IMG/VR virus record: IMGVR_UViG_3300024517_000002
Source: a virus
DNA length: 46,082 nt
Direction: 5' to 3' (one strand)
In this document: in pieces, positions 25,875 through 44,171 of the stretch
Layout: every line of letters begins with the position of its first letter
Position numbering within the stretch: position 1 is the stretch's first letter
Program-made: the position numbers and the translations under genes
The notes under the pieces: model-generated
Databases searched by the model: none
Told to the model about the DNA's origin: nothing
The model's input: the letters and a program-made list of their open reading frames with translations, nothing else

Positions 25875-25897
25875 GTCCCCACTAAACCCTCCCTGGC

Positions 25898-25906
25898 TGG
25901 TAGGGT
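25898..25906 (+). promoter_or_regulatory. Extended -10 TGGTAGGGT, 6 nt upstream of ATG 25913
   Basis: The same 9-mer and the same spacing occur at 29861-29869. Confidence 0.55.
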
Positions 25907-25912
25907 GCTCCC

Positions 25913-26790: not shown

Positions 26791-26804
26791 CAACCTGTTT
26801 TTGG

Positions 26805-27047: not shown

Positions 27048-27158
27048 GGAGCGACATACGAGGTCTGCGAGGATTGCTACCGCTGTCTATGCGAAGCCCG
27101 CCGCGCCGGACGACGCAGGTTCACCGCCCGGGGCCTTCCGCACATCCTCCCCGGTAAG

Positions 27159-27164
27159 TAGGAT
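27159..27164 (+). promoter_or_regulatory. -10-like TAGGAT, 7 nt upstream of ATG 27172
   Basis: TANNNT hexamer with no SD. Confidence 0.4.
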
Positions 27165-27171
27165 CCCGGGT

Positions 27172-27555
27172 ATGGATACTGAAACCAAAACGCCGATCCT
27201 CACGCCCCAGGTCCCTGCGGAATCCTACGAGCCGACAGGCCAGTGGGTAATCCTCAGACTCCCCGACACCCTCCAGGACCTCCTCGACCCCTCCGGTACG
27301 ACGAAGAAGCTGGCCCTCCCCGAGGGGGTCACCCGGTCAAGCCTGGTTGATGAGCAGCTGGCCCAGGTCGAAAAGATGGGCCGGGGGTCCTGGGACGGCC
27401 GATCCCAGACCTGGATTCAGCCCCCTTTCTCCGTCGGAGACTGGGTGGTTTTCCCTCACAGGTGCGCCGAGGGCATCAAGGTGCTCGATGAGGCCGGCCT
27501 GGCCCTCGTCAACGCCTCCGATATCATGCTCTACGTCCAAGCCGGGAAGGTCTAA
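27172..27555 (+). CDS. GroES/Cpn10-like co-chaperonin (putative)
   Basis: Aligns by eye to GroES: PTGQWVILRL with PLHDRVIVKR, and PFSVGDWVVF...GLALVNASDIMLYVQ with LDVKVGDIVIF...VLIMSESDILAIVE. Confidence 0.45.
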   Translation: MDTETKTPILTPQVPAESYEPTGQWVILRLPDTLQDLLDPSGTTKKLALPEGVTRSSLVDEQLAQVEKMGRGSWDGRSQTWIQPPFSVGDWVVFPHRCAEGIKVLDEAGLALVNASDIMLYVQAGKV

Positions 27556-27586
27556 CATACGGGTGGAACCGGGGGCTACGGCCCCC

Positions 27587-27592
27587 TAAGCT
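27587..27592 (+). promoter_or_regulatory. -10-like TAAGCT, 6 nt upstream of ATG 27599
   Basis: Follows the small hairpin gggggc/gccccc at 27571-27586. Confidence 0.4.
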
Positions 27593-27598
27593 CCGCTC

Positions 27599-27853
27599 AT
27601 GCCCCCGACACCTGAGGACCTCGAGAAGGGGCTGGACGGCCTGGAGCAGGAGGTTACACGCCTCAAGCTCTGGGTCGCTGAGCATGACGGCCGCATCGAG
27701 GCTTGGTGGGCCAACCAGCACGCCTGGAATGAGAAGATCGAGGAGCGCCTCTGCGATCTAGCCCTCAGGCTCTCCGCCGTGGAGAAGCGGATGATGTGGT
27801 GGGCCGGAGCCGCGGCGGGCGCCGGTGGGTGGATGGGGAGTTACTTCGGGTAG
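27599..27853 (+). CDS. Coiled-coil protein with a Gly/Ala-rich hydrophobic C-terminus (84 aa)
   Basis: Track ORF. The C-terminus is MMWWAGAAAGAGGWMGSYFG. Confidence 0.55.
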   Translation: MPPTPEDLEKGLDGLEQEVTRLKLWVAEHDGRIEAWWANQHAWNEKIEERLCDLALRLSAVEKRMMWWAGAAAGAGGWMGSYFG

Positions 27854-28487
27854 ATGTCCATGTAGGAGGTTATGAACTCCGCCGCGAGCGGTGCGACGAT
27901 CGCGTTCCCGTAGGCGCGCAGGCGTCCCATGCGGCCGGGAACCCCATGAGCCAACGGGAATGCGCCGGGTTCAATTGGCCGCCATCGGGAACTTTTAGGG
28001 TCGTGACAGAGGACCCATTCGTGACCGTCCCAGAAAGATGAGTTTCGTGGGGTAGCGGAGCGCGTCCCTTCAAGTGAGCCTTTGATCGCTTCTTCATGCT
28101 TGCTGTAGGCGTGGCCCACCCCGCCAGCATCGCTACTTCGTTGAGGGACCGTGAGTTCTTGCCGTGCAGGTTGCTCTTGCCACTCTTCCAATCCCTCGCT
28201 GCGCAGGTCGGCCACGAAGTACAGTCGTTGTCTTTTATGTGGAGCACCGACGCAAGCCGCGATCCCGTCCAGACGGGGCGGTCGTCTGGCCACCCGGCTA
28301 ATCGTAAGGCGTGCGGCCATCCGCCGATCCCAGCAAATAGGTGCGTTTGACAAAACCTAGAGAGGGATTTAGGGGCGAGGCCCTGGATGGGCCGTTCGAT
28401 AATTGGCCCGCTAGGTATGTGTCCGCCCGACATCAGGCCTCTCATCCACTCAGCAGCAAATGCTTCCGTTTCGTTATAAACCGCCAT
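27841..28487 (-). pseudogene. Disrupted C5 DNA-cytosine methyltransferase-like gene (motifs split over two frames, catalytic core missing)
   Basis: Frame A (27870..28487) reads [15 protein letters not shown]...LFAGIGGW (motif I)...DRPVWTGS. Frame B (27841..28353) reads [17 protein letters not shown] (motif VIII-like) and [18 protein letters not shown] (motif X). I found no PCQ (motif IV) or ENV (motif VI). Confidence 0.55.
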
Positions 28488-28731
28488 CGTCCGGCTCGTC
28501 ATCGTTCTTCTCCAGCCACTCCGCGGCCCACCGCCCCGGGGGCTCGTCTACTATGTCCACCTCCTTGAGGTTGCCGGCGGGCCCCACGGTAAGCGCAGTT
28601 GTCGCGGTGTCCGGTATGTCACGCGCCGCCTGGCCGGCCTTCTCCCTGCCGCGGAGGATCTTCAGTATCTGGTCCAGCTTCCCCTCGATGCGCTCCAGCC
28701 TGGATTCGTTGGGGATCATGATGGCCACCAT
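28474..28731 (-). CDS. Hypothetical protein (85 aa)
   Basis: Track ORF. Its end overlaps the start of the methyltransferase-like gene by 14 nt. Confidence 0.5.
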
Positions 28732-28744
28732 CCGCAGTACCTAT

Positions 28745-28912
28745 TCATTCCGTATCCCCCGGCAGGCGCCGCGCTCTGCGCTCATCGGCCAGCTTAGCGC
28801 AACGCTTATGCAGCGTGCGTTCGAGCTTGGATGACACGTACAGGTATGTGCGAGCCTTGCGGTGATACCAGCGGATGGGGTATCCGCACCAAACGCAGTA
28901 GAGGGCGCTCAT
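28745..28912 (-). CDS. Small Zn-ribbon-like protein (55 aa)
   Basis: Internal ATG (MSALYCVWCGYPIRWYHRK...HKRC). ATGA overlap with the upstream HTH gene. Confidence 0.45.
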   Translation of the reverse strand: MSALYCVWCGYPIRWYHRKARTYLYVSSKLERTLHKRCAKLADERRARRLPGDTE

Positions 28913-29169
28913 TCCTGCCACGGCTCCTTTTCTTCCGTCTCTTCCTGTTGCAGCAACCCCAGGGCCTGAAGTCGCTGCAGGATGGTGTTTGCCACGATGT
29001 TCGTGCAGCCAAGGACGCGGGCTAGTTCGCCGACATCCGCGATGGATCCAGTCTCGTTGACCCACATCATGGCCTCCTTGTCTTTACGGCTGAGGTAGTC
29101 GCGGTTTCTCATTCGGCTGCGAAGGCGGATGGCCTTCAGCTGTTCGGTGGTTAGGCGTGAGGGGTCCAT
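28909..29169 (-). CDS. Winged-helix/HTH DNA-binding regulator (86 aa)
   Basis: SIADVGELARVLGCTNIVANTILQRLQALGLL resembles a MarR/Lrp-type HTH. It is the first gene of the reverse operon and faces the repeat-rich intergenic region. Confidence 0.55.
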   Translation of the reverse strand: MDPSRLTTEQLKAIRLRSRMRNRDYLSRKDKEAMMWVNETGSIADVGELARVLGCTNIVANTILQRLQALGLLQQEETEEKEPWQE

Positions 29170-29508
29170 CGTTGAGTCAAGCCTACCTGAAGAACCTCCG
29201 GAACGGGGAGGGTATCTGAAAGGGGCGTCGCGGGGGAGAAGATGCGGCATCGCTGCGCTCGCCTCTGACTCTATCGGGGTTTGGAGAGCAAGCTCTCTTT
29301 CCCGGAGGGGCCCTACATCGGGCCCCGGAACAGCTCGCTCTGCTCGCTGGAGACTGGGGCGCCGGGCTCGGCTCCCCGAGGCTCGGCAGGGCCCTCGCCC
29401 AAACACCCCCCCTCCCCCCGCAGATGCGGAGTTCAGAGAGGCCGACCTCCCGGGTTCTTTTTTTACCTCGCGCGCCGGGCCTAGCCCCCTGCGAGGGTTC
29501 AGCCCGCC

Positions 29509-29640
29509 TTACGGCGAGGTTGGGAAACCACCTGTTGGCGAGATGTGGCTGGCCATTCTCGATGCCAAGAAAACACCGGAGAGGGCATTGCGGAAGTTCC
29601 CCGCAAGAGCCACACTTGTTCCCGGTGTTGCTATTGACAT
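29509..29640 (-). CDS. Candidate leaderless micro-ORF (43 aa)
   Basis: On the minus strand, TAGGGT (29652-29647) lies exactly 6 nt upstream of ATG 29640. The peptide is MSIATPGTSVALAGNFRNALSGVFLASRMASHISPTGGFPTSP. Confidence 0.25.
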   Translation of the reverse strand: MSIATPGTSVALAGNFRNALSGVFLASRMASHISPTGGFPTSP

Positions 29641-29646
29641 TTCAGC

Positions 29647-29652
29647 ACCCTA
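29647..29652 (-). promoter_or_regulatory. -10-like TAGGGT (minus strand), candidate leftward promoter of the switch region
   Basis: Same hexamer and same N6 spacing as the + strand examples. Confidence 0.45.
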
Positions 29653-29774
29653 GCGCGCTTCACGGCGCGCCTCAAGACCGAACTCCCCCGGGGGTTTCGA
29701 AGGCTCGTCCTTGTGGCGGGCCTTTTTCGTATCTGTGGTGGTCTGCGGGGGCCGGACCACAATGGGCAGTAGGT

Positions 29775-29844
29775 CCAGTTTTCGGCCAGTTTTCAGATCC
29801 GAGCCAGATCCGAGCCAGATCCCGGCCAGTTTTCAGATCCGAGC
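29775..29844. repeat. Iteron- or operator-like direct repeat array
   Basis: The 22-mer cggccagttttcagatccgagc occurs at 29783-29804 and 29823-29844. CCAGTTTTC occurs 3 times. CAGATCCGAG occurs 3 times, plus one variant. The array ends 17 bp before the TGGTAGGGT promoter. Confidence 0.85.
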
Positions 29845-29860
29845 GCCTTTCCTCCCCCCG

Positions 29861-29869
29861 TGGTAGGGT
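29861..29869 (+). promoter_or_regulatory. Extended -10 TGGTAGGGT, 6 nt upstream of ATG 29876 (candidate rightward early promoter)
   Basis: Identical 9-mer and spacing to 25898-25906. Confidence 0.55.
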
Positions 29870-29875
29870 CGGGGG

Positions 29876-30196
29876 ATGAATGACGACAAGCTCACGGCCT
29901 ACGGCAAGCTCTACAAGGCCAAGATGGACGCGATGTTCTCCAGCGTTTTCGCCCCCGCCCTCGTCGAGGCCCGCTGCAGGGGCTCCCTGGAGGTCGTGTA
30001 CGCCCCGGAGCTGGCGAACACCTGCATGGGGCGCATGGGAGGGGCTTCCGTCATGCGGCCGTCCCTGGAGCAGGCTCACGCCCATATGGACACCGCGGAG
30101 TTCGTGGCCTGGGAAGATCAGCTATGGGACGACGCCAAGGCGAAGTCGGCGCTGATCGACTGCCTGAGGAGCCGCGTGGAGGCCCTGTCGTGCTGA
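29876..30196 (+). CDS. Hypothetical early protein (106 aa)
   Basis: Track ORF. Confidence 0.6.
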   Translation: MNDDKLTAYGKLYKAKMDAMFSSVFAPALVEARCRGSLEVVYAPELANTCMGRMGGASVMRPSLEQAHAHMDTAEFVAWEDQLWDDAKAKSALIDCLRSRVEALSC

Positions 30197-30363
30197 GCGA
30201 GACCGAGGACGTGCTGCTGGATGAGATGTGCGGAAAGGCGCCGCGGCTGATCAAGCGGGCGGCGGGCGTAGAGGCGGGCGGCGACGACATACTCCTCCTG
30301 GAGAGTACGGTGACCTCCCTCAGGTGGCTTGCGGTCCGCCTGGAACGGGTCTGGGGCCGATGA
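30190..30363 (+). CDS. Hypothetical small protein (57 aa)
   Basis: GTG start inside track ORF 30124..30363; it overlaps the upstream stop. Confidence 0.45.
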   Translation: MLSETEDVLLDEMCGKAPRLIKRAAGVEAGGDDILLLESTVTSLRWLAVRLERVWGR

Positions 30364-30605
30364 GCGACCTCGGCCGCATCCTCTCGAGCGAGGACAAAAC
30401 CGGGGGCATGCGTGACTATTACGACGTGTGGGAGATGCTGGACAGGGATTCCATTGAGGCCGTGTACCGGATCCGGTTTGGGGCGAGGGCTCGCGTAAAG
30501 CTGGCGTATAGGGTGCAAAAGGGGATCGAGATGCCATTCCCGTGGGTCAAGCGCGAGATGGAGATGCGAGACATGAGCCTGGGGCGCATTCTGCGGACTC
30601 CTTGA
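30360..30605 (+). CDS. Hypothetical protein (81 aa)
   Basis: An internal ATG of track ORF 30228..30605 with an ATGA overlap. Confidence 0.55.
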   Translation: MSDLGRILSSEDKTGGMRDYYDVWEMLDRDSIEAVYRIRFGARARVKLAYRVQKGIEMPFPWVKREMEMRDMSLGRILRTP

Positions 30606-30714
30606 ACGGCGGGGCCGGAGGCCTACGATGCGACCATCTCAGTACCCTCCGGGTTGCTCAGGGGTCGTATCCCTCCACGCCCCCTGAGCGGCCCACCTCT
30701 CCTGGAGCCGCGCC

Positions 30715-31386
30715 GTGCATACCACCGAGCAAGTCGGGTTCTCAGAGCCCAACGTCCATTTCGTCCACACGCACCACAAGGTGACGTGCTATCTCGTCGA
30801 AGGGGATCCGTTCTGCGCCGATACGCGGCGTTGCACCTGCGGGGCGTACGGGTCGGTCTACGGTATGGACCGGTTCTCGTGGAAGAACCTCGTCACCACG
30901 GCGGGGGCCCTCTGGTACATGCAATGCATGCACCGGGGGCTCTTCGAGCAATCGTTTGACTCAGCAATCGTCCCCACCGTGAGCGACACGATTACGCCCA
31001 CGAACGAGTTCCGCACGCTAGAGCTCGCCAACGGGGGCAGCGCGGCCCCCAACGTCGCCAACAATCGCAGCAACATGGTCGGGATCATCGGTTCCACGCA
31101 GAAGGAACCGAGCCAAACCCCCGAAAACTACCCCGTAACCGACGACGGAGACACGCTGAACACCGGCAGGGGGGCTGACGTGATGACCTACCGGTACGAC
31201 TACGCGGCCGGGGACTTCAACGCCGTGGGGATCGCCGACCTGTGGATAACCAACCAGAGCCCCGGCGCCTCGGAGCCCATCCTGAACCACGCCGACGAGG
31301 CCTCGTTCCCCGGAGCCGTGGTCTTTACGAAGACGGCCACCGATACCCTGCAGGTGTCAGTCAACCACCAGGGCGCGCTCCCTTGA
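30715..31386 (+). CDS. Hypothetical (possibly virion-associated) protein (223 aa)
   Basis: Track ORF with a GTG start. GC3 is high from the first codons. The start is uncertain. Confidence 0.5.
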   Translation: MHTTEQVGFSEPNVHFVHTHHKVTCYLVEGDPFCADTRRCTCGAYGSVYGMDRFSWKNLVTTAGALWYMQCMHRGLFEQSFDSAIVPTVSDTITPTNEFRTLELANGGSAAPNVANNRSNMVGIIGSTQKEPSQTPENYPVTDDGDTLNTGRGADVMTYRYDYAAGDFNAVGIADLWITNQSPGASEPILNHADEASFPGAVVFTKTATDTLQVSVNHQGALP

Positions 31387-31395
31387 TCCCCCCTC

Positions 31396-31418
31396 CCGTC
31401 TCCAGGGGCCGGAGACGG
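31396..31418 (+). other. Intergenic hairpin (8-bp stem ccgtctcc/ggagacgg), no U tract
   Basis: Read directly from the sequence. Confidence 0.5.
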
Positions 31419-31458
31419 ATGCCAAGAGGGGGGCCTATCAGGTCCTTCGGAGTGAACA

Positions 31459-33519
31459 ATGGCAGCAGGTGACAAGGCAATTTACCGGGAGATAACGGCC
31501 GGGGGGACTCTCTCGGCCGTGGGTGGGCACATCCCCTGGGATACGACGGTAATTGAGGAAACCGGGTCCTTCTCCACGGATGAGTGGACGTGCGACGAGG
31601 CGGGGCACTATCTCGTATTCGGCTCCTACGTGGCCACGATTGCATCCGGGAACGTCCGGTCCGAGGTGCGCTCAGCCCTCACGCTTTCAGCCTTCGGGGT
31701 CGAGTTCCGGTCCCAATCGTGGGGCTCGAGGACCCTCAAAAACCAGCTGAACAAGGTCATCTGCAACTCCGCCGGCATCGTGACGATGCTCGTGGGGGAC
31801 ACGATGAAGCTCCACGCTCAGATGACGGGGAACTCCTCCCCCGCCAACCTGACGTTCGACGCGAACCGCTCCTACATGGGGGTGATCAAGCTGGACGATG
31901 ACGCGGACTACATCCGCCTGCGCTCCACCACGGACTCCCCCGTGGCTACGGAAACGCTCCAGGTGTACGACGAATGGAACGTGGACGACGAGGTAGATAC
32001 GGGGTCCTTCGGCTGGGTGGCCGGCGCCGGGGCGGAGTGGATCAGCTTCACGCAGCTCGGCTGGTATCTCGCCATCATCTCCCTCCACGCCCGCCACAAC
32101 GACCCCTCCGCGGCCGTGCCCCTGTCGTGCGTCGCGGTGCTGGAGCTCGACGAGAACGGGGACAGCGTGACCATCACGGAGATCGCGCGGGTCACCACGT
32201 TCCTCGACGGGCAGGACGGGTGCGATGACGGCTACCTGAACTTCAAGCTGCCGATCGAGAACGTCGATGTGGACGCCCGGGTGCGCGTTCGATTCGAGCT
32301 CTCCGGCACGGGGTACTCGGACGACTTCACCATCGTGGCCGAGGCGACGACCTTTACCGCGGTCTATCTCGAGCGGCAGGATATCGACATCGCCGTGGGG
32401 ACGATGACGGTGGACGACACGAGCGCGCCGAATCCGGCGGATCGGCAGGAGTTCGATACGTGGACCGTTGACGAGGACAGCCCCTCCGCGGACTCCTACA
32501 CGAGCCTGGGCAACCCGAACCGCGAGCTGCAGATCGACACGAACGCCTTCACGCTGGTTTTCTTCCAGGTGAACTGCTCCAGGCCCAGCACCGTGGCCGT
32601 GGGGCAGCCGTTCAATTACCGATACTTCGTCCGCAATACGCTCACGGGGCCCTTGTACGGGGACGGCCGGTGCTTCACCCGGAACAACAGCGCCTCCCAG
32701 GGGAACGAGGCCGGCGAGCACGGAATGGTGGTGATCGAGGCGGACGACACGGAGGATTACGGGCTCCACATCTTCCGCAACACGACCTCGACGGACACGA
32801 CGCTGCAGCTCGATCGGGATTTCACCTCGATCCAGTTCCTGGCCCTCGGGACCCTGTTCCCGAAGGTTGTCGAGGTGGCGGAGTCCGTGGAGTTCGAGGA
32901 GGGGATCTACACCTCCCAGGACAAGATTTTCCTCCCGGATACGGACACCGTGGAGTTTACGGAGGACCTCTTCTTCAAGCGGGGCCGGAAGGTGGAGATC
33001 GCCGAGACCCTGGAGTTCGCCGAGAGCCTGTTTATCTCGAGGGTCCTGCTGTTCCTGCCGGACGCAGAGACGATTGAGTTCAGCGAGACTCTCCACTTCT
33101 CAAGGGCCCGCCTGGTCATCCCTGCGCTGGAGGCCGTGGAGTTCGCCGAGAGCCTGGTCGTCCTGAGGGGGCGCAAGGTGATCGTAGATGAGGCCATCGA
33201 GTTCGACGAGGACGTCTACCTCGTCGTCGCGGTCACGGGAAATATGGTCTTCATTCAGGTGGCTACGGACACCCTGGAGTTCACCGAAAGCGGGGTGATT
33301 ACCGATATCAACCTGATCCGCGTGCTCCCCGTGGCGGGGTATATCGCGGCTGGCGGGGCCGAGGAGGGATATATCGCCTCCAGTGAGCACGCCGGATACA
33401 TCGCGGCGGGGGGCTGCGAAGAGGGATTCATCGCATCCAGTGCGCACGCCGGCTACATTGCCCCAGCGGGGGGCGACGAAGGACAGATCACCTCATCGCC
33501 CTACGAGGGGCGCTACTAG
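31459..33519 (+). CDS. Tail fibre or receptor-binding-like protein with internal repeats (686 aa)
   Basis: GGAG lies 8 nt upstream. There are five repeats of about 21 aa of the (T/A)(L/I/V)EF-x-E-x-L type. Three 19-aa tandem repeats of AGYIAAGGxEEGxIASSxH lie at the C-terminus. Confidence 0.6.
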   Translation: MAAGDKAIYREITAGGTLSAVGGHIPWDTTVIEETGSFSTDEWTCDEAGHYLVFGSYVATIASGNVRSEVRSALTLSAFGVEFRSQSWGSRTLKNQLNKVICNSAGIVTMLVGDTMKLHAQMTGNSSPANLTFDANRSYMGVIKLDDDADYIRLRSTTDSPVATETLQVYDEWNVDDEVDTGSFGWVAGAGAEWISFTQLGWYLAIISLHARHNDPSAAVPLSCVAVLELDENGDSVTITEIARVTTFLDGQDGCDDGYLNFKLPIENVDVDARVRVRFELSGTGYSDDFTIVAEATTFTAVYLERQDIDIAVGTMTVDDTSAPNPADRQEFDTWTVDEDSPSADSYTSLGNPNRELQIDTNAFTLVFFQVNCSRPSTVAVGQPFNYRYFVRNTLTGPLYGDGRCFTRNNSASQGNEAGEHGMVVIEADDTEDYGLHIFRNTTSTDTTLQLDRDFTSIQFLALGTLFPKVVEVAESVEFEEGIYTSQDKIFLPDTDTVEFTEDLFFKRGRKVEIAETLEFAESLFISRVLLFLPDAETIEFSETLHFSRARLVIPALEAVEFAESLVVLRGRKVIVDEAIEFDEDVYLVVAVTGNMVFIQVATDTLEFTESGVITDINLIRVLPVAGYIAAGGAEEGYIASSEHAGYIAAGGCEEGFIASSAHAGYIAPAGGDEGQITSSPYEGRY
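32941..33228 (+). repeat. About five degenerate 63-66-nt coding repeats (VEF-x-E-x-L...R units)
   Basis: Seen in the translation TVEFTEDLFFKR / TLEFAESLFISR / TIEFSETLHFSR / AVEFAESLVVLR / AIEFDEDVYLVV. Confidence 0.7.
33334..33504 (+). repeat. 57-nt tandem repeat x3 (19-aa units)
   Basis: AGYIAAGGAEEGYIASSEH / AGYIAAGGCEEGFIASSAH / AGYIAPAGGDEGQITSSPY. Confidence 0.85.
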
Positions 33520-33528
33520 GACCCAGCC

Positions 33529-33948
33529 ATGGCTCTGCGAGACATCGACCAGAAGAAGCTCATCGAGGGCACCGACAGCTGGAACGTCATGCGCTGGCGC
33601 CGGCAAAACGGCGATGACGTGCAGCGAGGGGACATCACCGGGTGGTCCCTCAAGGTCTGGAATATCGAGGATTCAGAGCTGGTCTACACGAAAGCGGTCA
33701 CCGGGAACGCCGATGTGGCTGGGGAGTGGCTCTGGTTTGACGGCCTGCAGGCCGGGGATGGCTACTGGGATGAGCTGTCGGACAAGGGCTACAACAACCG
33801 ACACTTCCTCACGGAGACCCTCGTCGGAGCCGGGGTGATGGTCGGCGGGTCGAAATACCAGATCGAGTACATCCTCGACTGCACCCTGGGGTCCCTTGGG
33901 AAGATGAAGAAGTTTTTCATCTGGGATATGGACTCGGGGCGAGCGTAA
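33529..33948 (+). CDS. Hypothetical protein (139 aa)
   Basis: Track ORF immediately after the fibre-like gene. Confidence 0.6.
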   Translation: MALRDIDQKKLIEGTDSWNVMRWRRQNGDDVQRGDITGWSLKVWNIEDSELVYTKAVTGNADVAGEWLWFDGLQAGDGYWDELSDKGYNNRHFLTETLVGAGVMVGGSKYQIEYILDCTLGSLGKMKKFFIWDMDSGRA

Positions 33949-34093
33949 AGTGGTCGCCCAGCCCACCAAGAGCCGATATCCGGTAAAGCAGGGGCCCCCG
34001 TCATCGCTAAATCCAAGGGGCCGACCGGAACGCTTAGTGAGCTGGACTCAGGAAAGCCTACCACATCGGGCTTTCTACGGAGGGTTTTCGGAC

Positions 34094-34099
34094 TAGGAT
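34094..34099 (+). promoter_or_regulatory. -10-like TAGGAT, 6 nt upstream of ATG 34106
   Basis: TANNNT-N6-ATG with no SD. Confidence 0.45.
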
Positions 34100-34105
34100 C
34101 CCGCC

Positions 34106-34585
34106 ATGGGTAAGATCAAGGCCGAGATGATGCGGAGCCTCGTGGAGGACTCGGGCGAGCTCCTCAACCCGAAGAACGGGAAGGAAAGCCCCGACAGCAC
34201 GCCGCTGGTTGGGTATATGCGCGAGCGGCTCAGCGCAACCGACGGCCACGGGCTGGCCAAGTTCTACGGGAAGAACACGCGCTCCGTCGTGGATCGGCTG
34301 ATCCAGGTGGCCCGCGGAGACCTCCTCGAGAAGCTCCTGTCCATGGACACCGATAAGATCGAGGCGAAGGATCTGCATATCGCCTTCGGCCACGCAACGC
34401 GGATGTGGCTTGAGGCTACGAAGCTCCTGCTTGCCTACACGGCTGGACGCCCGCGCGAGCACCGGGAAGTGGAGTCCGACGTGGAGCTCCCCGAAATCAT
34501 CGTCATCGGCCCCGATACGCCCGATGTAGTGATGCCGCTGCCGGAGAACGAAAAGGCTATTGCGGAAAACCTACCCCCCACGTAG
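34106..34585 (+). CDS. Hypothetical protein (159 aa; small terminase candidate by position only)
   Basis: Track ORF. Helical and charged. It is the only plausible TerS-sized gene upstream of TerL, but 4.6 kb separates them. Confidence 0.45.
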   Translation: MGKIKAEMMRSLVEDSGELLNPKNGKESPDSTPLVGYMRERLSATDGHGLAKFYGKNTRSVVDRLIQVARGDLLEKLLSMDTDKIEAKDLHIAFGHATRMWLEATKLLLAYTAGRPREHREVESDVELPEIIVIGPDTPDVVMPLPENEKAIAENLPPT

Positions 34586-34588
34586 GGT
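34560..34588 (+). promoter_or_regulatory. Promoter-like TTGCGG-N17-TAGGGT, 6 nt upstream of ATG 34595
   Basis: Read directly from the sequence. Confidence 0.45.
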
Positions 34589-34594
34589 TGGGTG

Positions 34595-34870
34595 ATGAAG
34601 CAAGAATCACTCAGCCTGTCCGGGAAAGGCTGGTCCGCTCACGCAACCGTCGGCCGCTCAGGCAAGCGCGGCGTCTTTCGCATCTCGGTACACGACTTCC
34701 ACCGAGAGGGTGTCTACGTTCATGACGTGGACCCCCTGGGCATAGTAGAGGGCATGAGGGGCAAGGGTACTGAGCCTGAGCCCGACGGGACGGAGCCGGC
34801 GGCGCCCGACTCCGACCTGGAATCAGATGAAGACGAGACTTCCGACGCCTCCAGGGACGCCTTCGAATAA
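34595..34870 (+). CDS. Hypothetical protein with an acidic tail (91 aa)
   Basis: Track ORF. ATG 34595 is preferred over GTG 34592. Confidence 0.5.
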   Translation: MKQESLSLSGKGWSAHATVGRSGKRGVFRISVHDFHREGVYVHDVDPLGIVEGMRGKGTEPEPDGTEPAAPDSDLESDEDETSDASRDAFE

Positions 34871-34893
34871 AGCTGAATCACGCTCTCAGCTTA

Positions 34894-34934
34894 GGAGGCC
34901 GCGGGTTTTAGGACGCCCGCGGCCTCCGTCTTTT
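34894..34934 (+). terminator. Intrinsic terminator
   Basis: 12-bp perfect stem ggaggccgcggg with cccgcggcctcc, then gtcTTTT. Confidence 0.8.
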
Positions 34935-34936
34935 GC

Positions 34937-35027
34937 GCACCCGTAGCTCAATGGCAAGAGCACCGCCTTTCTGGGGCTCCGAGCCGCAATTCGGGCGGCG
35001 ATGGCCTGTTCGAATCAGCCCGGGGCA
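34937..35027 (+). tRNA. tRNA-like element (degenerate or interrupted; possibly a pseudo-tRNA)
   Basis: The D-arm is canonical (GCTC-AATGGCAA-GAGC, 34946-34961). The T-arm has a GTTCGAATC loop (35008-35016). Only 4 of 7 acceptor base pairs form. The anticodon stem CCGCC/GGCGG encloses 26 nt instead of 7. Confidence 0.3.
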
Positions 35028-35045
35028 CCCTACTATGCGCAGCCC

Positions 35046-36314
35046 ATGGCTAAACTTCTCGCGCTCTTCCTCGCCACCGCCGCGGTGTTCGTAACCCTGC
35101 CCGTTCTTGTCAGGCCCTCACCCCCGCCCCCGGATATCGTCCTGATCATCGTGGATGACCTCTCGCGTTCGGACCTGGACCTGATCCACACGCCGAACCT
35201 CGACGCCCTCGCTGCGTCCGGGGTAACCTTCACGCGAGGCTACTCCATGCCGACATGCGCACCGACTCGGTGGTCCATGCTCTATGGCGAGTTCAACCCG
35301 AGGCACTTCCGGTCCGAATGTCGCGACAACCCGACGAACCCGTTCCCGCACCCCCTCGCCGCTCCGATTCTCGACCCAAGCCGCCCAAACCTCTCGAATG
35401 TCCTAACTGCCGCGGGTTACACCGCTGGGTTCTTCGGGAAGTGGCACACGGGGTCGGTCATGAGTGGGTGGCAGAATGCCCCGTTGGAGGTAGGTTTCAC
35501 CGCGTGGCGAGCCGGGGGCCCGCCGCTTCTTTCTGCGAGCGGTGGGGCTTGTAACAGCTTCGGATTTTACGACTGGCAACGGGTAGACGATGGAACGATC
35601 ACGCAGGAGACTGGATACGCCACTAAAGCTCAGGTGGACGCGGCCATTGATTGGGCTTCCGGCACTCCGGGCCCAAGGTTCGCGATTGTCTCGTTTCACA
35701 GTCCGCACATACCGCTACATCTACCTCCCGAGGAGGTGGGGCGAACCGATCGCGAGCAGTTTGAGGCCATGGTTAGAAATCTCGACGTGGAGGTGGGCCG
35801 CCTCCTTGGCGCGATCCCGGACGACGCTTGGGTCTTCTTCATCGCAGACAACGGGACCTTCTCCGGCAACGTCGCCCCCGGCGTTGACCCCGACAAGGCC
35901 AAGCGGACAACCTTCGAAGGAGGAATAAATGTCCCTGTACTCGTTCGAGGACCAGGTGTATTGGGTGGACGAGAGTGCGGCCGACTGGTTTGCACTACAG
36001 ACATTCTTGCAACGCTCGCTGAAATCGTCGGCGCTCCTCCTCCCTTATGGGCTGAAGACTCGCTCTCTTTCCTCCCGCTGGTTCACGGACCCACCGGCCC
36101 ACCCACCCGCACCATCGGATACGCAGGCCACGTTCGAGACGACGGAACCGAGCACGACGAGGCCGCCTTTACGGAGAGGTACAAGCTGCGCCGGGTCTTT
36201 GGCGTGGAAACGCTCTACGACCTGAAGGCCGACCCTCTCGAGGAGAACCCCCTGCCCGCCGGCGCGCTGCCCGGGACCTGGGCGAAGCTCTCCGCGTTCA
36301 TCGACGCCCAATAA
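35046..36314 (+). CDS. Formylglycine-type sulfatase (arylsulfatase family) with a signal peptide
   Basis: DIVLIIVDDLSRSDL...SMPTCAPTRWSMLYG contains the C-x-P-x-R signature. GKWH and HSPHIP motifs are also present. The N-terminal hydrophobic signal is MAKLLALFLATAAVFVTLPVLV. Confidence 0.85.
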   Translation: MAKLLALFLATAAVFVTLPVLVRPSPPPPDIVLIIVDDLSRSDLDLIHTPNLDALAASGVTFTRGYSMPTCAPTRWSMLYGEFNPRHFRSECRDNPTNPFPHPLAAPILDPSRPNLSNVLTAAGYTAGFFGKWHTGSVMSGWQNAPLEVGFTAWRAGGPPLLSASGGACNSFGFYDWQRVDDGTITQETGYATKAQVDAAIDWASGTPGPRFAIVSFHSPHIPLHLPPEEVGRTDREQFEAMVRNLDVEVGRLLGAIPDDAWVFFIADNGTFSGNVAPGVDPDKAKRTTFEGGINVPVLVRGPGVLGGRECGRLVCTTDILATLAEIVGAPPPLWAEDSLSFLPLVHGPTGPPTRTIGYAGHVRDDGTEHDEAAFTERYKLRRVFGVETLYDLKADPLEENPLPAGALPGTWAKLSAFIDAQ

Positions 36315-36348
36315 AAAAGCCCCGCAGCCGTGGGGGCGACTGCGGGGC
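36313..36348 (-). terminator. Intrinsic terminator for the reverse 3-gene operon (its hairpin also lies right after the sulfatase stop)
   Basis: 9-bp stem gccccgcag with ctgcggggc. The A6 run on the + strand gives a U run on the minus-strand transcript. Confidence 0.7.
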
Positions 36349-36359
36349 GATGAAGCGGC

Positions 36360-36572
36360 TTACCCTGGCGGGTCCTGGCGCCGCTCTGGCCAGCAGGATA
36401 CTAGCATGCAGGCGATGGAGAAGGACCCCAGCAGGGCCGGCACGCGGTGGCTCCATATGCTGATCCCGAAGATGAAGCGGGCGGCAAGGTCCATGATGAC
36501 GAAGTAGCCGACCGTGGCGGATAGGAGGATTGCCGCCGTGCGGAACCCCAAGTCGCAAATGAGTCTTCTCAT
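36360..36572 (-). CDS. Small two-TM membrane protein (70 aa)
   Basis: This is the C-terminal ATG-initiated part of track ORF 36360..37085 (MRRLICDLGFRTAAILLSATVGYFVIM...ALLGSFSIACMLVSCW). ATGA overlap with the upstream gene. Confidence 0.5.
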   Translation of the reverse strand: MRRLICDLGFRTAAILLSATVGYFVIMDLAARFIFGISIWSHRVPALLGSFSIACMLVSCWPERRQDPPG

Positions 36573-36775
36573 CGGTTGAACCCCCTGGCGAACTCCCACC
36601 GTTGGAGCGCCCCGAGGAGACGCTGCCGAAAGGCCGCGTCCGCTTCCTGTCGGGCCGCTAGGGATTCGAAGGCGCTCGCCATCGCCTCTTGAAACTGTGT
36701 CTCCTTGCCGCGGGCAGGCTGCAGGACATCGGCCAGCTCTAGCGGCTGCTTCTCGTTGCTTTTCCGCCGCCCCAC
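36569..36775 (-). CDS. Hypothetical soluble helical protein (68 aa)
   Basis: Track ORF. The GTG start abuts the upstream stop. Confidence 0.45.
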   Translation of the reverse strand: MGRRKSNEKQPLELADVLQPARGKETQFQEAMASAFESLAARQEADAAFRQRLLGALQRWEFARGFNR

Positions 36776-37069
36776 CTAGTAGCGGACATTCTGGGTAGCG
36801 GCCAGCGGGCGGTCTAGCTTGGCCTGGAGCAGGTCGGCGTCCAGCTTGCGCGTGAGCGTGCGGTGCTCCTCCTCGCGGTCTTCCGTGTCGTCGATCCTGT
36901 CGAGCGCCTTGGAGACCATAGCCTTGGCCTGCGCCGCCTGAGTGTTTGCCCAGAGGATAAACCCTGCCGTGATGACCGACCCCGAGACGGCCAGAATAGA
37001 AGCGACGGGCACGGCGAAACTGGAGTTCCCCGCGGCGTCGGTGATGTGAATAAATGTCTCTGCGAGCAT
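36776..37069 (-). CDS. Membrane-anchored coiled-coil protein (97 aa)
   Basis: Track ORF. GAGAAGGGAAAGC lies upstream of the ATG. The TM segment is FAVPVASILAVSGSVITAGFILW, followed by a charged helix. Confidence 0.55.
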   Translation of the reverse strand: MLAETFIHITDAAGNSSFAVPVASILAVSGSVITAGFILWANTQAAQAKAMVSKALDRIDDTEDREEEHRTLTRKLDADLLQAKLDRPLAATQNVRY

Positions 37070-37210
37070 TGCTTTCCCTTCTCAAGCGGGCAGCCGGATT
37101 GCCGCCCTGCTTTTTCTCTATCGGAACCCGAGGCCCCGGAACTTGAACCCTTTACCGGTCAGGTAAGGAAAACTGCGCACAAACCTCTTCCTGGGGGAGG
37201 CTTTTCCACC

Positions 37211-37216
37211 TACCCT
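37211..37216 (+). promoter_or_regulatory. -10-like TACCCT, 6 nt upstream of ATG 37223
   Basis: TANNNT-N6-ATG. Confidence 0.4.
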
Positions 37217-37222
37217 GAAAGG

Positions 37223-37630
37223 ATGGCTAAGCGCAAGAAGAAGGTCTCCCGCAAGAAGAAGGTCTCCCGCAAGAAGAAGGCCAAGCGGGCCGCCCCCCTG
37301 GCTTTCTCCGTGCCCGCGGCTGAAATCGAAGCAAGCACCTATGAGCGCCGCCGATGCCCGCGCTGCGATGGAGCCATGCCCGCCCGCCAAGGCTGGCGCC
37401 CCGTGCCCGATGCCGGGAACTGGCGCCGCCGCGTCCGCCGCTGCGAAACCAAGCGGTGTGGCTTCGCCGAGGTCTTCATCGAGCTCCCGCAGGGGGACCT
37501 CGAGGAGTACGTACGCGTACATGAGATCGTGGCTAGTTTCCGCCAGGTGGTCACGTCAATGCAAATGACAGGCACCCCCGCCCCGAACCTGTCGCGCCCC
37601 CTGCGTAAGCTCCTCGGGCTGGCCAGCTGA
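37223..37630 (+). CDS. Basic Zn-ribbon protein with an N-terminal RKKKVS repeat (135 aa)
   Basis: An internal ATG of track ORF 36863..37630. Reads MAKRKKKVSRKKKVSRKKKAKR...CPRCDG...CETKRC. Confidence 0.55.
   Translation: MAKRKKKVSRKKKVSRKKKAKRAAPLAFSVPAAEIEASTYERRRCPRCDGAMPARQGWRPVPDAGNWRRRVRRCETKRCGFAEVFIELPQGDLEEYVRVHEIVASFRQVVTSMQMTGTPAPNLSRPLRKLLGLAS
37232..37280 (+). repeat. 18-bp tandem repeat x2.7 (cgcaagaagaaggtctcc)
   Basis: Read directly from the sequence. Encodes RKKKVS units. Confidence 0.9.
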
Positions 37631-38960: not shown

Positions 38961-39002
38961 AGAGGCCCCGCAGACCAGCATCTGCGGGGCCTCTTTCCGT
39001 TT
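38961..39002 (+). terminator. Intrinsic terminator
   Basis: 14-bp perfect stem agaggccccgcaga with tctgcggggcctct and loop ccagca, followed by a T-rich tail. Confidence 0.75.
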
Positions 39003-39200: not shown

Positions 39201-40871
39201 GTGGCACGAGAAGGCAAGGTCGTACGCGTAGGGGGGAAACTCTTTCGCCAGAGTTATCAGCCCTATGGGGTTGCCCGTCAGCTCTGGCAAACCACCGAGC
39301 GGGAGATCCTCGCCGAGTCCGGGGCCGGCACGGGAAAGACGCGCTCAATCCTGGAGTGGGCTCGATGGGCCTGCGAGCGACACCCCGGCACGCGCGGCGT
39401 CTTCTCCAGGCTCACCAAGAAGTCGATGCGGGATACCGTGCTGCCCGAATGGGAGGACGTGGTACTCGGCCGGGGGCACCCCATGCTCCACGGGACGGCC
39501 TCCCGCATGCACCGGGAGAACTACATTCACCCCAACGGGTCGGAGATCATCCTTCACGAGCTCCAGAATCCCGATCGATTCCTTTCCGCACAGTATGACT
39601 TCTTCATAACCTTTCAGGGGGAAGAGGTCCCGAACGACGAGGTTTACCAGAAGGCCCTCACCCGACTCCGTAACGGGGTCCTTCCCCACCCACGCGCCAT
39701 CAACGACGTGAACCCAGGCGTCCAATCGCACTGGCTCAACGTCCGCGGAGATATCAAGCTCTGCCGCCCCTGCTACGACGGCCGCGGAGAGCCCGGGATC
39801 CCCCAGGTGGTCGAGATGGAGGTTTCCGGGGATATACCCACCTGCCCCCGCTGCCACTCCTTGGAGTACCGGCCCCAGCTCCTCCGCCTTCTCTACCGAC
39901 ACGAACACAACCCCCGGTGGTTTGACCAGGACGAGCGCGTCTGGACCCCCGCCGGCAAGGAGTATGTCTTCCTCACCCTGGGATCCCTCCGCGGGGTCCA
40001 GCGCGAACGCCTGCTAAAGCACCGGTGGGTTGCCGAGGAGGGGATCATTCTCGAGGAGTGGGACCCCAACATCCACTACGGGGGCGGCCAGCTCTTCCCC
40101 CCGGAAGCCGACCCCACGGAGAACGACTGCCCCCTCTGGCGCTTCCGCATGCCGGACGGAGAGACCTACACGTTCGAGTGGTTCGGCGCCGGCGTCGATT
40201 GGGGTTTCGTCGATCCTGGCGTCATCACGGTATGGGGCGTCACCGCGGCGCACGAGTACGTGCTCATTGAGGAGCATTGCTGCAGCGGGAAGCAGATCGA
40301 GTATTGGGCCACGCTCGCCGACCAGCTGCGAGCCAAGTACGGCATCCGCTGGTTTGCTTGCGACCCCTCCCGCCCCGACTTCATCGAGGCCTTCAACAAG
40401 AGGTTCGGCGGGAAGTTCACACGCGATGGGGCCTGCCACGCCCTCTCCGCAGACAACACGCTCCGCTCGAAGCCGAAGGCCAAGGGGAAGGACCTCGTGG
40501 GCGTGGACCTCATGCGGGAGGCCCTCATGGATGAATCCGGGGTCAGCCGGCTCTACGTGTGGGCCGACGCGGCCAGCCGGATCGACAAGGAGCGCAAGCG
40601 GTCAGGTCAGCCGGTGGTCTTCCGGGATGAACTCCTCCAGTGGACCTGGGCGAAGAACTCCGACGGGAAGACTCTCGAGAAGCCGGACCCCAACGCCGAG
40701 GACCACATCATGGACGCCACGCGGTACTTCCTGTCGCTGGCGTGGCTCACGCGCTACCGAAACTCAGACCGCGCCCTGAAGTACCTGCCGGGGACCGTGG
40801 GGCACGCCCTCAATTGGGAGGAGCGTCAGCGGAAGAAGCGCAAGGATCGACGCCGGAGACGTGGGGCGTGA
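39201..40871 (+). CDS. terL: Terminase large subunit
   Basis: Walker A is GAGTGKT. The C-terminal RNaseH-like nuclease motifs are GAGVDWGFVDPGVITVWG, WFACDPSRPDFIEAF and EDHIMDATRYFL. 556 aa. Confidence 0.85.
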   Translation: MAREGKVVRVGGKLFRQSYQPYGVARQLWQTTEREILAESGAGTGKTRSILEWARWACERHPGTRGVFSRLTKKSMRDTVLPEWEDVVLGRGHPMLHGTASRMHRENYIHPNGSEIILHELQNPDRFLSAQYDFFITFQGEEVPNDEVYQKALTRLRNGVLPHPRAINDVNPGVQSHWLNVRGDIKLCRPCYDGRGEPGIPQVVEMEVSGDIPTCPRCHSLEYRPQLLRLLYRHEHNPRWFDQDERVWTPAGKEYVFLTLGSLRGVQRERLLKHRWVAEEGIILEEWDPNIHYGGGQLFPPEADPTENDCPLWRFRMPDGETYTFEWFGAGVDWGFVDPGVITVWGVTAAHEYVLIEEHCCSGKQIEYWATLADQLRAKYGIRWFACDPSRPDFIEAFNKRFGGKFTRDGACHALSADNTLRSKPKAKGKDLVGVDLMREALMDESGVSRLYVWADAASRIDKERKRSGQPVVFRDELLQWTWAKNSDGKTLEKPDPNAEDHIMDATRYFLSLAWLTRYRNSDRALKYLPGTVGHALNWEERQRKKRKDRRRRRGA

Positions 40872-43389: not shown

Positions 43390-43609
43390 GCTCGCGCTTG
43401 CCCACGAGGCCCCCGTGTACCTTCTGAGCTACGAGGGACTCGTCCAGGACCCCGAGGCGGTCGGGCGGGACCTCTTCGAGTGGCTCAGCCTCCCGTGGGT
43501 GGCGTGGCCTGTGGAGGCGTACGCGAACCCTGAGACGCCGGAGCGGGGGCGTCTGTTCGACGGGAATCGGAAGTGGCTGGACGCGCGGTCTGGTGGCTCA
43601 ACAGGATGA
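43370..43609 (+). CDS. Lone + strand ORF (79-111 aa) with a sulfotransferase-C-terminus-like motif
   Basis: LLSYEGLVQDPEAVGRDLFEWLSLPW resembles the YEDL..DP....FLG region of sulfotransferases. GC3 is very high. It may start at TTG 43274. It overlaps the 3' tail of the sigma gene convergently. Confidence 0.4.
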   Translation: MRTAVFTLALAHEAPVYLLSYEGLVQDPEAVGRDLFEWLSLPWVAWPVEAYANPETPERGRLFDGNRKWLDARSGGSTG

Positions 43610-44171
43610 CGTATTCAGGATCGTCGATGTGCCTGCGCGCCCGGGTGTGCAGTCCACGCGCCGCGTGCCCCGAAGGCCGTGAGAGAACCGTGGCCACATC
43701 GCTCCAGGCCAGGTGAAAGAGCCCGCGTAGCATGAGCACCGAGCGCCCTTCGACCTCCTGGTTCCAGAGCAACTGACACCCCGGAGGCTTGAGGGCCACG
43801 AAGTTCTCGAAGTGCGGCACCAGGATCAATCCGAAATCGTCACCGGCCCCAGCGGTCTTCGTCCTCTTATCGTGCCCCTTGCGCGCACTCAGGAGGTGGT
43901 TGCGGGCTATGCCCAGAAGCCAGGCCCGAAAGCCCCGCTCGGTATCCGCGCGCATCGAGCGGATGGCCCCGAAGCAACAAACGACCGTATCCTGGAAGAC
44001 GTCCTCGGCATCCACTCCGTGCATCCCCATGCGCAGTGCGATGCCGCCGATTCCGGAAACGAGTGCGCGACGTGAGCGTGAGATCAGTCGCGCCAGAGCG
44101 TCTCCGTCCCCCAGACGGGCGAGCTCCAGGTCGAAGTTCAGGTCATTTAGTTTCTGTAGATTCTCTTTCAT
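43485..44171 (-). CDS. ECF-type RNA polymerase sigma factor (sigma-70 family)
   Basis: Region 2 is DAEDVFQDTVVCCFGAIRSMRADTERGFRAWLLGIARNHLLSARK. Region 4 is GRSVLMLRGLFHLAWSDVATVLSRPSGHAARGLHTRARRHI. ATG 44171 is ATGA-coupled to the upstream micro-ORF. The last 40 or so codons have low GC3. Confidence 0.7.
   Translation of the reverse strand: MKENLQKLNDLNFDLELARLGDGDALARLISRSRRALVSGIGGIALRMGMHGVDAEDVFQDTVVCCFGAIRSMRADTERGFRAWLLGIARNHLLSARKGHDKRTKTAGAGDDFGLILVPHFENFVALKPPGCQLLWNQEVEGRSVLMLRGLFHLAWSDVATVLSRPSGHAARGLHTRARRHIDDPEYVILLSHQTARPATSDSRRTDAPAPASQGSRTPPQATPPTGG

Follow-up and report, generated by a model that had tools for sequence, protein, structure and literature searches.

A predicted exported, family-S1 sulfatase in a complete phage genome, and evidence for its lineage being mostly phage-borne

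What might a phage gain from carrying a sulfatase? The question is posed by IMG/VR record IMGVR_UViG_3300024517_000002, a viral DNA of 46,082 nucleotides (this whole stretch is here termed 'the window'), in which one plus-strand open reading frame (ORF; Table 1) was described, in a first-pass annotation made from sequence alone, as a sulfatase-encoding moron. The reading favored here, with moderate confidence, is that the gene is an accessory gene of the phage which specifies a family-S1 sulfatase, one that is exported, that is matured by the host, and that desulfates extracytoplasmic carbohydrate of the infected cell. The earlier annotation correctly identified the sulfatase but over-read the architecture of the cassette around it. 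The enzyme family itself is a known one. What is new, as suggested by comparison of sequences, is a lineage of sulfatases which is mostly carried by phages and which bears export signals. For this lineage the window supplies a clean test case, the genome being complete, the enzyme intact, and its relatives clear.

Judged from alignments and from a structural model, the 422-amino-acid product is beyond reasonable doubt a formylglycine-dependent sulfatase of family S1 with its catalytic residues intact. The signature upon which the first-pass annotation relied (DIVLIIVDDL, SMPTCAPTRWSMLYG, FFGKWH, and FHSPHIP) is borne out first by Pfam, the classification which that annotation had suggested as a check: the Sulfatase model, PF00884, is matched over its full length by residues 29-329 (101.3 bits versus a cut-off of 25; 8e-29). 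Loss of catalytic residues, held out in advance as grounds for abandoning the assignment, is not seen. All ten S1 active-site residues are present, i.e., C71 and R75 of the formylglycine motif (the Cys71 codon being 35256-35258), D37, D38, D268, and N269, and K132, H134, H221, and K286. These are kept in alignments of 8, 12, and 60 sequences, and they align with the catalytic residues of human GALNS and of ARSA. The metal-binding Asp-Asp/Asp-Asn along with the catalytic Lys, His, His, and Lys, in particular, match those of GALNS in the HMMER alignment. Searching PDB with phmmer returns human GALNS (1e-25), an S1_16 kappa-carrageenan sulfatase, GalNAc-6-sulfatases, S1_19 carrageenan sulfatases, and ARSA. 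An AlphaFold2 (AF2) model, built from the 60-sequence alignment (pLDDT 90.2, pTM 0.90), consists of a single compact sulfatase domain, without a fiber or adaptor module, and has a helix (residues 71-80) which starts at the formylglycine motif. Foldseek, run with this model against PDB, matches S1_19, S1_16, S1_20, and S1_15 sulfatases as well as ARSA and PAS (E ~1e-25, TM 0.72-0.79, 18-26% identity).

The likeness to S1 carbohydrate sulfatases of known structure (PsS1_19B of Pseudoalteromonas, 6psm/6prm; Ps i-CgsB, 6b0j; ZgCgsA of Zobellia, 9hh2; the S1_16 kappa-carrageenan sulfatase, 9fo1; and human GALNS, 4fdi) thus extends to the Pfam domain, the CxPxR motif, the same ten catalytic or metal-binding residues, and the two-subdomain fold. 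The window enzyme differs from these in its low identity to them, in being compact, in being phage-encoded, in having DDLSRSD where DDxGxxD is usual, and in having a WQRVDDG motif and a Cys92/Cys169 pair, both of which are considered further below. Among NCBIfam models, the arylsulfatase and choline-sulfatase equivalogs are matched only in part and below threshold, and as seen at this level the protein matches no known orthologue. PHROGs supplies one match, at 6e-21 and chiefly over residues 29-156, to phrog_19870, a family with no function assigned. Concerning the extent of the gene, the ORF used here runs from an ATG at 35046 through the TAA at 36312-36314. The longest ORF, which is also the JGI gene call, starts instead at 35001. 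The 35046 start is preferred because close homologues open alike, with M-[RK]-x-L-L, and because the longer version would overlap a tRNA-like element found just upstream.

To what lineage does this enzyme belong? In a neighbor-joining tree of protein-search matches and IMG/VR loci (based on corrected p-distances, a rough method), the window protein falls into a seven-member group found in 89/100 bootstraps, the members of which are 32-52% identical: the window, P0002, P0003/L001, P0004, P0008/L023, L009, and L010. Five of these seven sit among phage genes. Besides the window, which is a complete phage genome, these are L001, in which a portal gene and two small genes are followed by the sulfatase; L023, in which a Phage_cap_E capsid gene and three small genes are so followed; and two IMG/VR viral contigs, L009 and L010, the first with an HNH endonuclease gene and then the sulfatase, the second with a large terminase (TerL) gene 2.5 kb off. 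P0002 and P0004 are from short contigs whose context is uninformative. A weakly supported sister of the clade, L011, is from a siphovirus-like contig, with its sulfatase located between major head and head-closure genes. In L001, L011, and L023 the sulfatase lies inside of the head/connector structural cluster, and therefore is probably expressed late. L001, furthermore, is an unrelated phage (Mu-type portal, Terminase_6C, Phage_tube_2) which shares with the window only the sulfatase, at 50% identity. These patterns are evidence for a sulfatase lineage that is mostly phage-borne and that moves between unrelated phages, rather than for a one-off capture from a host.

Specific to the clade are the WQRVDDG motif and the extra Cys92/Cys169 pair. 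The window ORF is intact and the ten catalytic residues are kept across the clade despite its divergence, and purifying selection for catalysis is thereby implied. Among viral homologues of known context the closest (P0003; L001, 4920-6245) retains the other catalytic residues but has C-A-N-T-R instead of C-x-P-x-R. The proline of this motif normally is required for recognition by the formylglycine-generating enzyme (FGE) or by the anaerobic sulfatase-maturing enzyme.

Beyond the clade, relatives are distant. In a search of 5.8 billion proteins the three top matches are 54, 50, and 39% identical and the many that follow do not exceed 35%, the best match outside of the clade being no more than ~35% identical. 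The 589 confirmed matches listed from 185,579 species-representative genomes do not exceed 33% identity. The nearest cellular homologues among the matches listed, at 25-33% identity, come from several phyla (Acidobacteriota, Verrucomicrobiota, Planctomycetota, and others) and include Bryobacterales, so that the suggestion of the sulfatase serving as a host-range clue is a weak one. No cellular member of the clade was found, a negative which rests mainly on the 5.8-billion-protein search and, for the genome and metagenome scans, applies among the matches listed. P0006, which falls just outside of the clade, has an ordinary cellular neighborhood. In IMG/VR, 15 loci encode relatives, most of which are 24-30% identical and outside of the seven-member clade.

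The claim that sulfatases are uncommon in phages stands up well. Across 50,697 GenBank phage records there are only 13 weak matches (22-35% identity), none of them in an isolated, characterized phage: nine are to unannotated 'Bacteriophage sp.' fecal contigs and four to 'Acinetobacter phage MD-2021a' contigs with atsA genes. In BFVD it is giant-virus proteins alone (Yasminevirus, Satyrvirus, Tetraselmis virus 1) that share the fold, and these differ from the window enzyme in being but 12-17% identical to it, in having eukaryotic hosts, and in their lengths and architectures. No characterized phage sulfatase was encountered in the literature searched, where sulfatases are only passing entries in lists of viral metabolic genes. 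A study of hypersaline archaeal viruses (bioRxiv 10.1101/2025.02.15.638363) includes a virus with sulfatase-superfamily ORFs, and an FGE is reported to be encoded by Pseudoalteromonas phages (PMC10232697). The latter also is a sulfatase-pathway gene found on a phage and treated as an auxiliary metabolic gene (AMG), but there it is a maturase without a sulfatase whereas here it is a sulfatase without a maturase.

Where would such an enzyme act? The N-terminus of the window protein, which the first-pass annotation had taken to be a cleavable hydrophobic one, indeed is of export type; it is instead the cleavability that fares poorly. This N-terminus (MAKLLALFLATAAVFVTLPVLVRPSPPPP) consists of MAK, 19 hydrophobic residues, and then RPSPPPP. 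It thus possesses the positively charged n-region and the hydrophobic h-region of a Sec signal, with a mean Kyte-Doolittle hydropathy of 2.6 over residues 4-22, and in the AF2 model it takes the form of a helix (residues 2-16) followed by a low-confidence linker. Read by eye, the window protein has no lipobox, there being no Cys before residue 71, and has no AXA signal peptidase I site, there being no suitably placed small-x-small sequence. An uncleaved signal anchor consequently seems as likely for this protein as does a cleaved signal peptide. All seven clade members open with a hydrophobic N-terminus. Lipobox-like cysteines are seen in P0002 (LLVSC), P0003 (LVAAC), L010 (LLLLC), and L110 (LSLLC), and P0004 has a classical ALA-AP signal peptide. 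Cys92 and Cys169 are co-conserved in the window protein, P0002, P0003, P0008, and L009, which suggests an extracytoplasmic disulfide. The sulfatase, in short, probably is exported, membrane-tethered, and absent from the virion. As exported or tethered proteins are not expected in virions, the earlier idea of the enzyme aiding adsorption as a virion component is weakened, and action at the envelope of the infected cell is favored.

Is the gene then an accessory one? Its location supports as much. The sulfatase gene is found in a variable region lying between the end of the late/structural plus-strand block and the terminase gene, where it follows a 686-amino-acid, repeat-rich, fiber-like gene and then three small genes which close that block (at 34870). 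The closest relative found, L108, has a TerL that is 72% identical, a 466-amino-acid protein that is 74% identical, and its large structural genes in the same order. In L108, homologues of the window genes 34106-34585 and 37223-37630 flank different genes, with neither the sulfatase nor the tRNA-like element located between them. A more distant relative, L109 (TerL 38%), has a canonical tRNA-His (3982-4057) where genes converge, ~3.4 kb upstream of the terminase gene, at a site that roughly corresponds to the position of the window's tRNA-like element. Because L108 has other genes there and L109 has this tRNA-His at a comparable junction, the interval is seen, from sequence, to be a variable accessory region, although the comparison of the site itself is to one relative only (L108), in which the interval is rearranged and not simply empty.

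Morons are independent transcription units inserted into late operons, as defined for HK97/lambda-type phages (Juhala/Hendrix). The window sulfatase gene resembles these in its accessory status and its place at the end of a plus-strand block, in its absence from the corresponding site in L108, in being common to unrelated phages, and in having a strong terminator upstream. It differs in that no promoter is detected for it, in that the terminator found downstream faces the opposite strand, and in that its base composition is not clearly foreign; the L009 homologue, too, is translationally coupled to both of its neighbors and so is not a separate unit. Of the earlier description, i.e., a self-contained moron bracketed by strong terminators, the accessory status therefore survives, whereas the independent transcription unit is at most conjectural.

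More specifically, the upstream terminator holds up. A hairpin at 34894-34927, with 13 pairs of which 11 are G-C, is followed on the plus strand by GTCTTTTG, and its fold (-31.8 kcal/mol; z = -4.4) is not equaled by any of 200 shuffles. It serves to close the plus-strand gene block that ends at 34870. The hairpin claimed to follow the sulfatase stop codon also is present, 5 nt past it, but does not appear to be the terminator of the sulfatase. It is called on the minus strand (12 pairs, tail TTTTTTATTG), whereas read along the plus strand it has A6 ahead of it and GATGAAGC after it, and lacks a U-run; its z is -2.6 for the minus strand and -2.0 for the plus strand. As the U-run is on the minus strand only, the hairpin is read here as the terminator of a convergent, three-gene operon (37069->36360), these being the convergent reverse-strand genes that the first-pass annotation had noted. 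To a plus-strand sulfatase transcript it may be at most a secondary barrier. Terminator-like sites number 17 over 30-42 kb versus 7.2 +/- 3.0 in shuffles, and the two hairpins flanking the sulfatase, along with one at 38961-38994, are by far the strongest of these.

No sigma-70-like promoter was detected over 30-42 kb. Only 9 nt separate the upstream hairpin from the tRNA-like element, so essentially no room exists for a promoter of the sulfatase's own. The phage encodes a sigma-70-family protein, which may direct phage-specific promoters and, if so, would explain the missing sigma-70 consensus promoters. A Shine-Dalgarno-like motif, AGGGA/TAGGG(A/T), is found 5-15 nt before most of the start codons of the phage (e.g., TAAGGGAAAAC, ACTAGGATCC, CGTAGGGTT) and is absent before the sulfatase gene and a few others.

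Taken together, the favored reading may be laid out as follows. The sulfatase gene would be co-transcribed with the tRNA-like element, whether via partial read-through of the upstream terminator or from an unrecognized phage promoter. Cys71 of CAPTR would be converted to formylglycine by the host's FGE or anaerobic sulfatase-maturing enzyme, prior to or during export, this step being expected from what is known of the family. The need for a host-supplied maturase had been anticipated in the first-pass annotation and is upheld: maturation should depend upon the host because neither an FGE nor a radical-SAM maturase was found by Pfam among approximately 50 ORFs of the window (the set to which family scans here refer). 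The hydrophobic N-terminus would direct the protein to the Sec pathway, with tethering by means of an uncleaved anchor or, in relatives, of a lipid anchor. The Ca2+/formylglycine site would then hydrolyze sulfate esters on carbohydrate found outside of the infected cell's cytoplasm, the target presumably being a sulfated glycan at or near that cell's surface. Remodeling of host-surface glycans and scavenging of nutrients are about equally likely as the purpose served, and carriage of the enzyme on the virion is unlikely. Should the enzyme prove active, phages would directly turn over sulfated polysaccharides, a large store of carbon and sulfur, in the sea and in the gut, that is slow to cycle, or alternatively would possess a new route for editing host surfaces. 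The clade in either case supplies compact (~400-amino-acid), divergent sulfatases for the screening of specificity.

A number of points weigh against this reading. It assumes that the host supplies a maturase and bears a sulfated glycan. Placement in a SulfAtlas subfamily calls for grouping with a defined subfamily or for at least ~30-40% identity to a characterized member, but identity to every characterized sulfatase is 18-26%, with the best of these drawn from S1_19, S1_16, S1_20, and S1_15 as well as GALNS and ARSA, and no subfamily or substrate consequently is assignable; that the nearest solved relatives act on sulfated Gal/GalNAc is a weak hint only. Base composition does not clearly mark the gene as foreign: its GC content is 0.626 versus 0.64 for the genome, and GC3, though among the lowest in the genome, is 0.716 versus 0.797 +/- 0.056, i.e., -1.4 sd. 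The window protein lacks both lipobox and AXA site, with its topology judged by eye. The L108 contig is incomplete (30 kb), and its missing part could hold a sulfatase. Lastly, because neither a promoter nor the Shine-Dalgarno-like motif is seen, expression of the gene is only presumed.

Of the more specific or competing readings, one that is possible, though held here quite tentatively, is nutritional. That is, the exported sulfatase might be an AMG product which strips environmental sulfated polysaccharides, of algal or mucus type, that then are used by host glycoside hydrolases, or which makes available the sulfate so released, thereby increasing what can be spent on phage production. The nearest solved relatives are in keeping with this, being catabolic carbohydrate sulfatases of marine and gut degraders (S1_19, S1_16, and S1_15 on carrageenan; S1_20 on mucin), as are the nearest cellular homologues among the matches listed, from the sulfatase-rich Planctomycetota, Verrucomicrobiota, and Bryobacterales. 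A periplasmic or lipoprotein location, too, is typical of catabolic sulfatases. A lone sulfatase, however, accompanied by neither glycoside hydrolase nor transporter, would add little to hosts that typically are sulfatase-rich already, and no metabolic gene other than the sulfatase is present in the genome as scanned. The absence of any integrase among the ORFs scanned suggests that the phage probably is lytic, which would leave little time for a nutritional pay-off. The clade's standing apart from all cellular sequences found points to long selection in phages, but long-resident AMGs form phage clades as well.

A second possibility, and a doubtful one, is that the tethered sulfatase modifies the receptor or capsule. 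Desulfation of the host's own capsule, exopolysaccharide (EPS), lipopolysaccharide (LPS), or S-layer glycan, as used for adsorption, would block superinfection and free progeny from debris. This would be an enzymatic counterpart to T5 Llp or to O-antigen-modifying conversion genes. T5 Llp and phi80/N15 Cor are receptor-blocking lipoproteins of lytic phages. By analogy only, they and the window sulfatase are alike as small accessory products which are exported or anchored by lipid, whose genes neighbor those for receptor binding or structure, and whose site of action is the infected cell's envelope; these proteins differ from the window sulfatase in being non-enzymatic binders of a protein receptor, and no homology exists between them and it. 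What speaks for such a role is that the clade is mostly phage-borne and common to unrelated phages, that relatives have lipoprotein or anchor signals, that the window gene comes at the end of the plus-strand block after the fiber-like gene and three small genes, and that the homologues in L001, L011, and L023 probably are expressed late. Position beside structural genes is nonetheless typical of any moron, a sulfated surface glycan of the host, or phage binding to one, has to be assumed, and no precedent for a sulfatase in this role was met in the literature searched. The broader version of the idea, i.e., that the clade as a whole consists of phage-adapted, lipid- or membrane-anchored sulfatases which move between unrelated phages and desulfate the host's receptor or capsule glycan, thereby excluding superinfection and freeing progeny, we view as somewhat improbable. 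If true, this would be the first sulfatase among receptor-destroying or receptor-modifying phage enzymes.

Improbable to a greater degree is that the gene is a mere passenger, either unexpressed or unmatured, or that its product acts on another class of substrate, as do the phosphonate monoester hydrolases (PMHs) and phosphodiesterases of the same superfamily. The lack of a detected promoter and of a Shine-Dalgarno-like motif would fit with this, as would the CANTR of the L001 homologue, which may escape FGE, and a weak similarity to PehA/PMH-type enzymes. The ORF is intact, though, with its catalytic residues kept across a divergent clade, and matches to carbohydrate sulfatases are far stronger than are those to PMH (1e-25 versus 1e-7).

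We consider it very improbable that the sulfatase is virion-associated, that is, packaged or tail-attached and desulfating capsule, mucin, or algal glycans en route to the receptor. Phage tails commonly bear polysaccharide-degrading enzymes, the window gene is near to a tail-fiber-like gene, and three other phages have the gene inside of structural modules. Virions assemble in the cytoplasm, however, whereas all clade members have a Sec or lipoprotein export signal and none has an N-terminal virion-attachment domain, and the single-domain model is without any fiber or adaptor module. That the segment might be foreign to the phage genome, as an assembly chimera or host contamination, for which its low GC3 and lack of the usual ribosome-binding motif might be invoked, is next to impossible given independent assemblies which cross both of the suspected junctions (34900 and 36350) at 100% identity, an ENA contig which closes the circle, and phage genes on both sides of the sulfatase.

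Those assemblies come from JGI, from ENA, and from two SRA runs, with contigs that cover 31527-37261 or more (25001-37261 and 31527-37261 in the case of the SRA runs). The identical sulfatase protein is found on 12 contigs from several samples. The window has an exact terminal direct repeat of 127 bp (1-127 = 45956-46082), and the independent ENA assembly crosses from the window's end into its start. Because of these two observations the window is taken to be a complete circular, or circularly permuted, phage genome of ~45,955 bp (~45.96 kb). We also considered whether it might include a prophage boundary, in which case the sulfatase would be a host gene and the tRNA-like element would be the att site. 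This was rejected, as the genome is circular, no integrase was found among approximately 50 ORFs, and the locus is bounded on both sides by viral genes, for a virion protein and for TerL (Table 1).

Table 1. Features of the window, with positions, strands, and the basis for each.
Feature	Coordinates	Strand	Basis or remark
Family-S1 formylglycine-dependent sulfatase (predicted), 422 aa	35046..36314	+	PF00884, PDB phmmer, AF2/Foldseek, phrog_19870
Formylglycine motif C71-A-P-T-R75	35256..35270	+	C71 and R75 invariant in 60-sequence alignment
Hydrophobic helix plus Pro-rich linker, residues 1-29	35046..35132	+	Sequence, hydropathy, model, relatives' signals
Intrinsic-terminator-like hairpin, 13-bp stem, 8-nt loop, tail GTCTTTTG	34894..34937	+	Terminator scan, fold energy
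Non-canonical tRNA-like element, 91 nt	34937..35027	+	Rfam RF00005
Strong hairpin, U-run on minus strand	36319..36348	-	Terminator scan, fold z-score
Three small convergent genes, 70, 68, and 97 aa	36360..37069	-	ORF calls; outside sulfatase unit
Large terminase (TerL)	39201-40871		phrog_2
Virion structural protein, 1881 aa	14644-20289		phrog_22602, C-terminal third only
Sigma-70-family protein	43485-44171	-	Sigma70_r2, 1.8e-9
HNH_3 homing endonuclease	22576-23022	+	Pfam match
1410-aa protein	8320-12552		No Pfam or PHROG match

The claim of a tRNA-like element upstream of the sulfatase likewise is sustained, with the qualification that the element is non-canonical. It is the sole Rfam match in the whole window (RF00005, 37.2 bits versus a gathering score of 29), and its 3' end is 18 nt before the sulfatase start codon. 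Within its tRNA scaffold the anticodon loop is enlarged by 19-22 nt (22 in the Rfam alignment), the T-stem is bulged, and the 3' acceptor strand is one base short. A canonical tRNA would have a 7-nt anticodon loop and be called by standard finders; ARAGORN makes no call here at default settings and at a relaxed threshold offers an odd type-II model. In silico deletion of 19 nt at the canonical 37/38 intron position, by contrast, results in a default ARAGORN call of tRNA-Arg(tct). A 796-nt 'intron' called in ARAGORN's intron mode is spurious. AGA makes up only 2% of the phage's Arg codons, and exact-match searches found no copies of the element in IMG/VR. Pseudogene, processing signal, and unusual, intron-like insertion are all candidate explanations for the element. 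An archaeal (haloarchaeal) host, as might explain such an insertion, is unsupported given a median protein pI of 5.5, the phage's sigma-70-family protein, and the bacterial lipoboxes of relatives.

As to the remainder of the genome, the family scans matched only the sulfatase, sigma-70 region 2, HNH_3, TerL, and the C-terminal third of the 1881-amino-acid virion protein. The phage lineage, as judged from nearly every ORF lacking a Pfam or PHROG match, thus is very poorly charted, and for that same reason the sulfatase's neighbors cannot be named. Among these neighbors, the three convergent genes have no PHROG or Pfam match; the 70-amino-acid product has two predicted membrane helices and the 97-amino-acid product one, and the three could together serve in lysis (holin-like) or in exclusion, as a cassette. 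The gene for the 686-amino-acid acidic protein (31459-33519, plus strand), which is four genes upstream of the sulfatase, contains six copies of a 60-63-nt repeat at 32881-33307 (~20 amino acids, 'xVEFxExL') and specifies a C-terminal AGYIAxGG repeat. This protein looks like a fiber or receptor-binding protein, a label taken from its repeat architecture only.

In its C-terminal third the 1881-amino-acid protein is similar to marine-podophage virion proteins (Cellulophaga phi18:3, Pelagibacter HTVC027P) and also to a gene of Pseudoalteromonas phage vB_Pun_Y3 that is annotated as 'ADP-ribosyltransferase'. The sigma-70-family gene is found within a minus-strand block which adjoins the terminase gene. 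The HNH_3 gene overlaps the start of a 647-amino-acid ORF (22659-24602). An HNH gene 43% identical to it is located in L009 (7453-7962), directly upstream of the sulfatase there and with a 1-base overlap.

A TerL search for close phage relatives had no match in IMG/VR, and relatives came via the protein database only. Five of these TerL relatives (P0123, P0126, P0138, P0139, and P0203) are 840-910 amino acids long and have Hint/intein along with LAGLIDADG-type domains (PF07591, PF13403, PF14890, PF14528). By their domain content these are intein-containing terminases, and the window TerL is without an intein.

Downstream of the convergent genes, a Lys-rich tandem repeat (KKKVSRKKKVSRKKK) is found at 37246-37275, inside of gene 37223-37630. 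Between the ENA assembly and the window there is just one difference, an 18-nt indel, probably located within this repeat since the ENA copy of that gene is 6 amino acids shorter, and the two SRA assemblies stop at 37261. Given this indel together with these two assembly breaks, the number of repeats probably is polymorphic.

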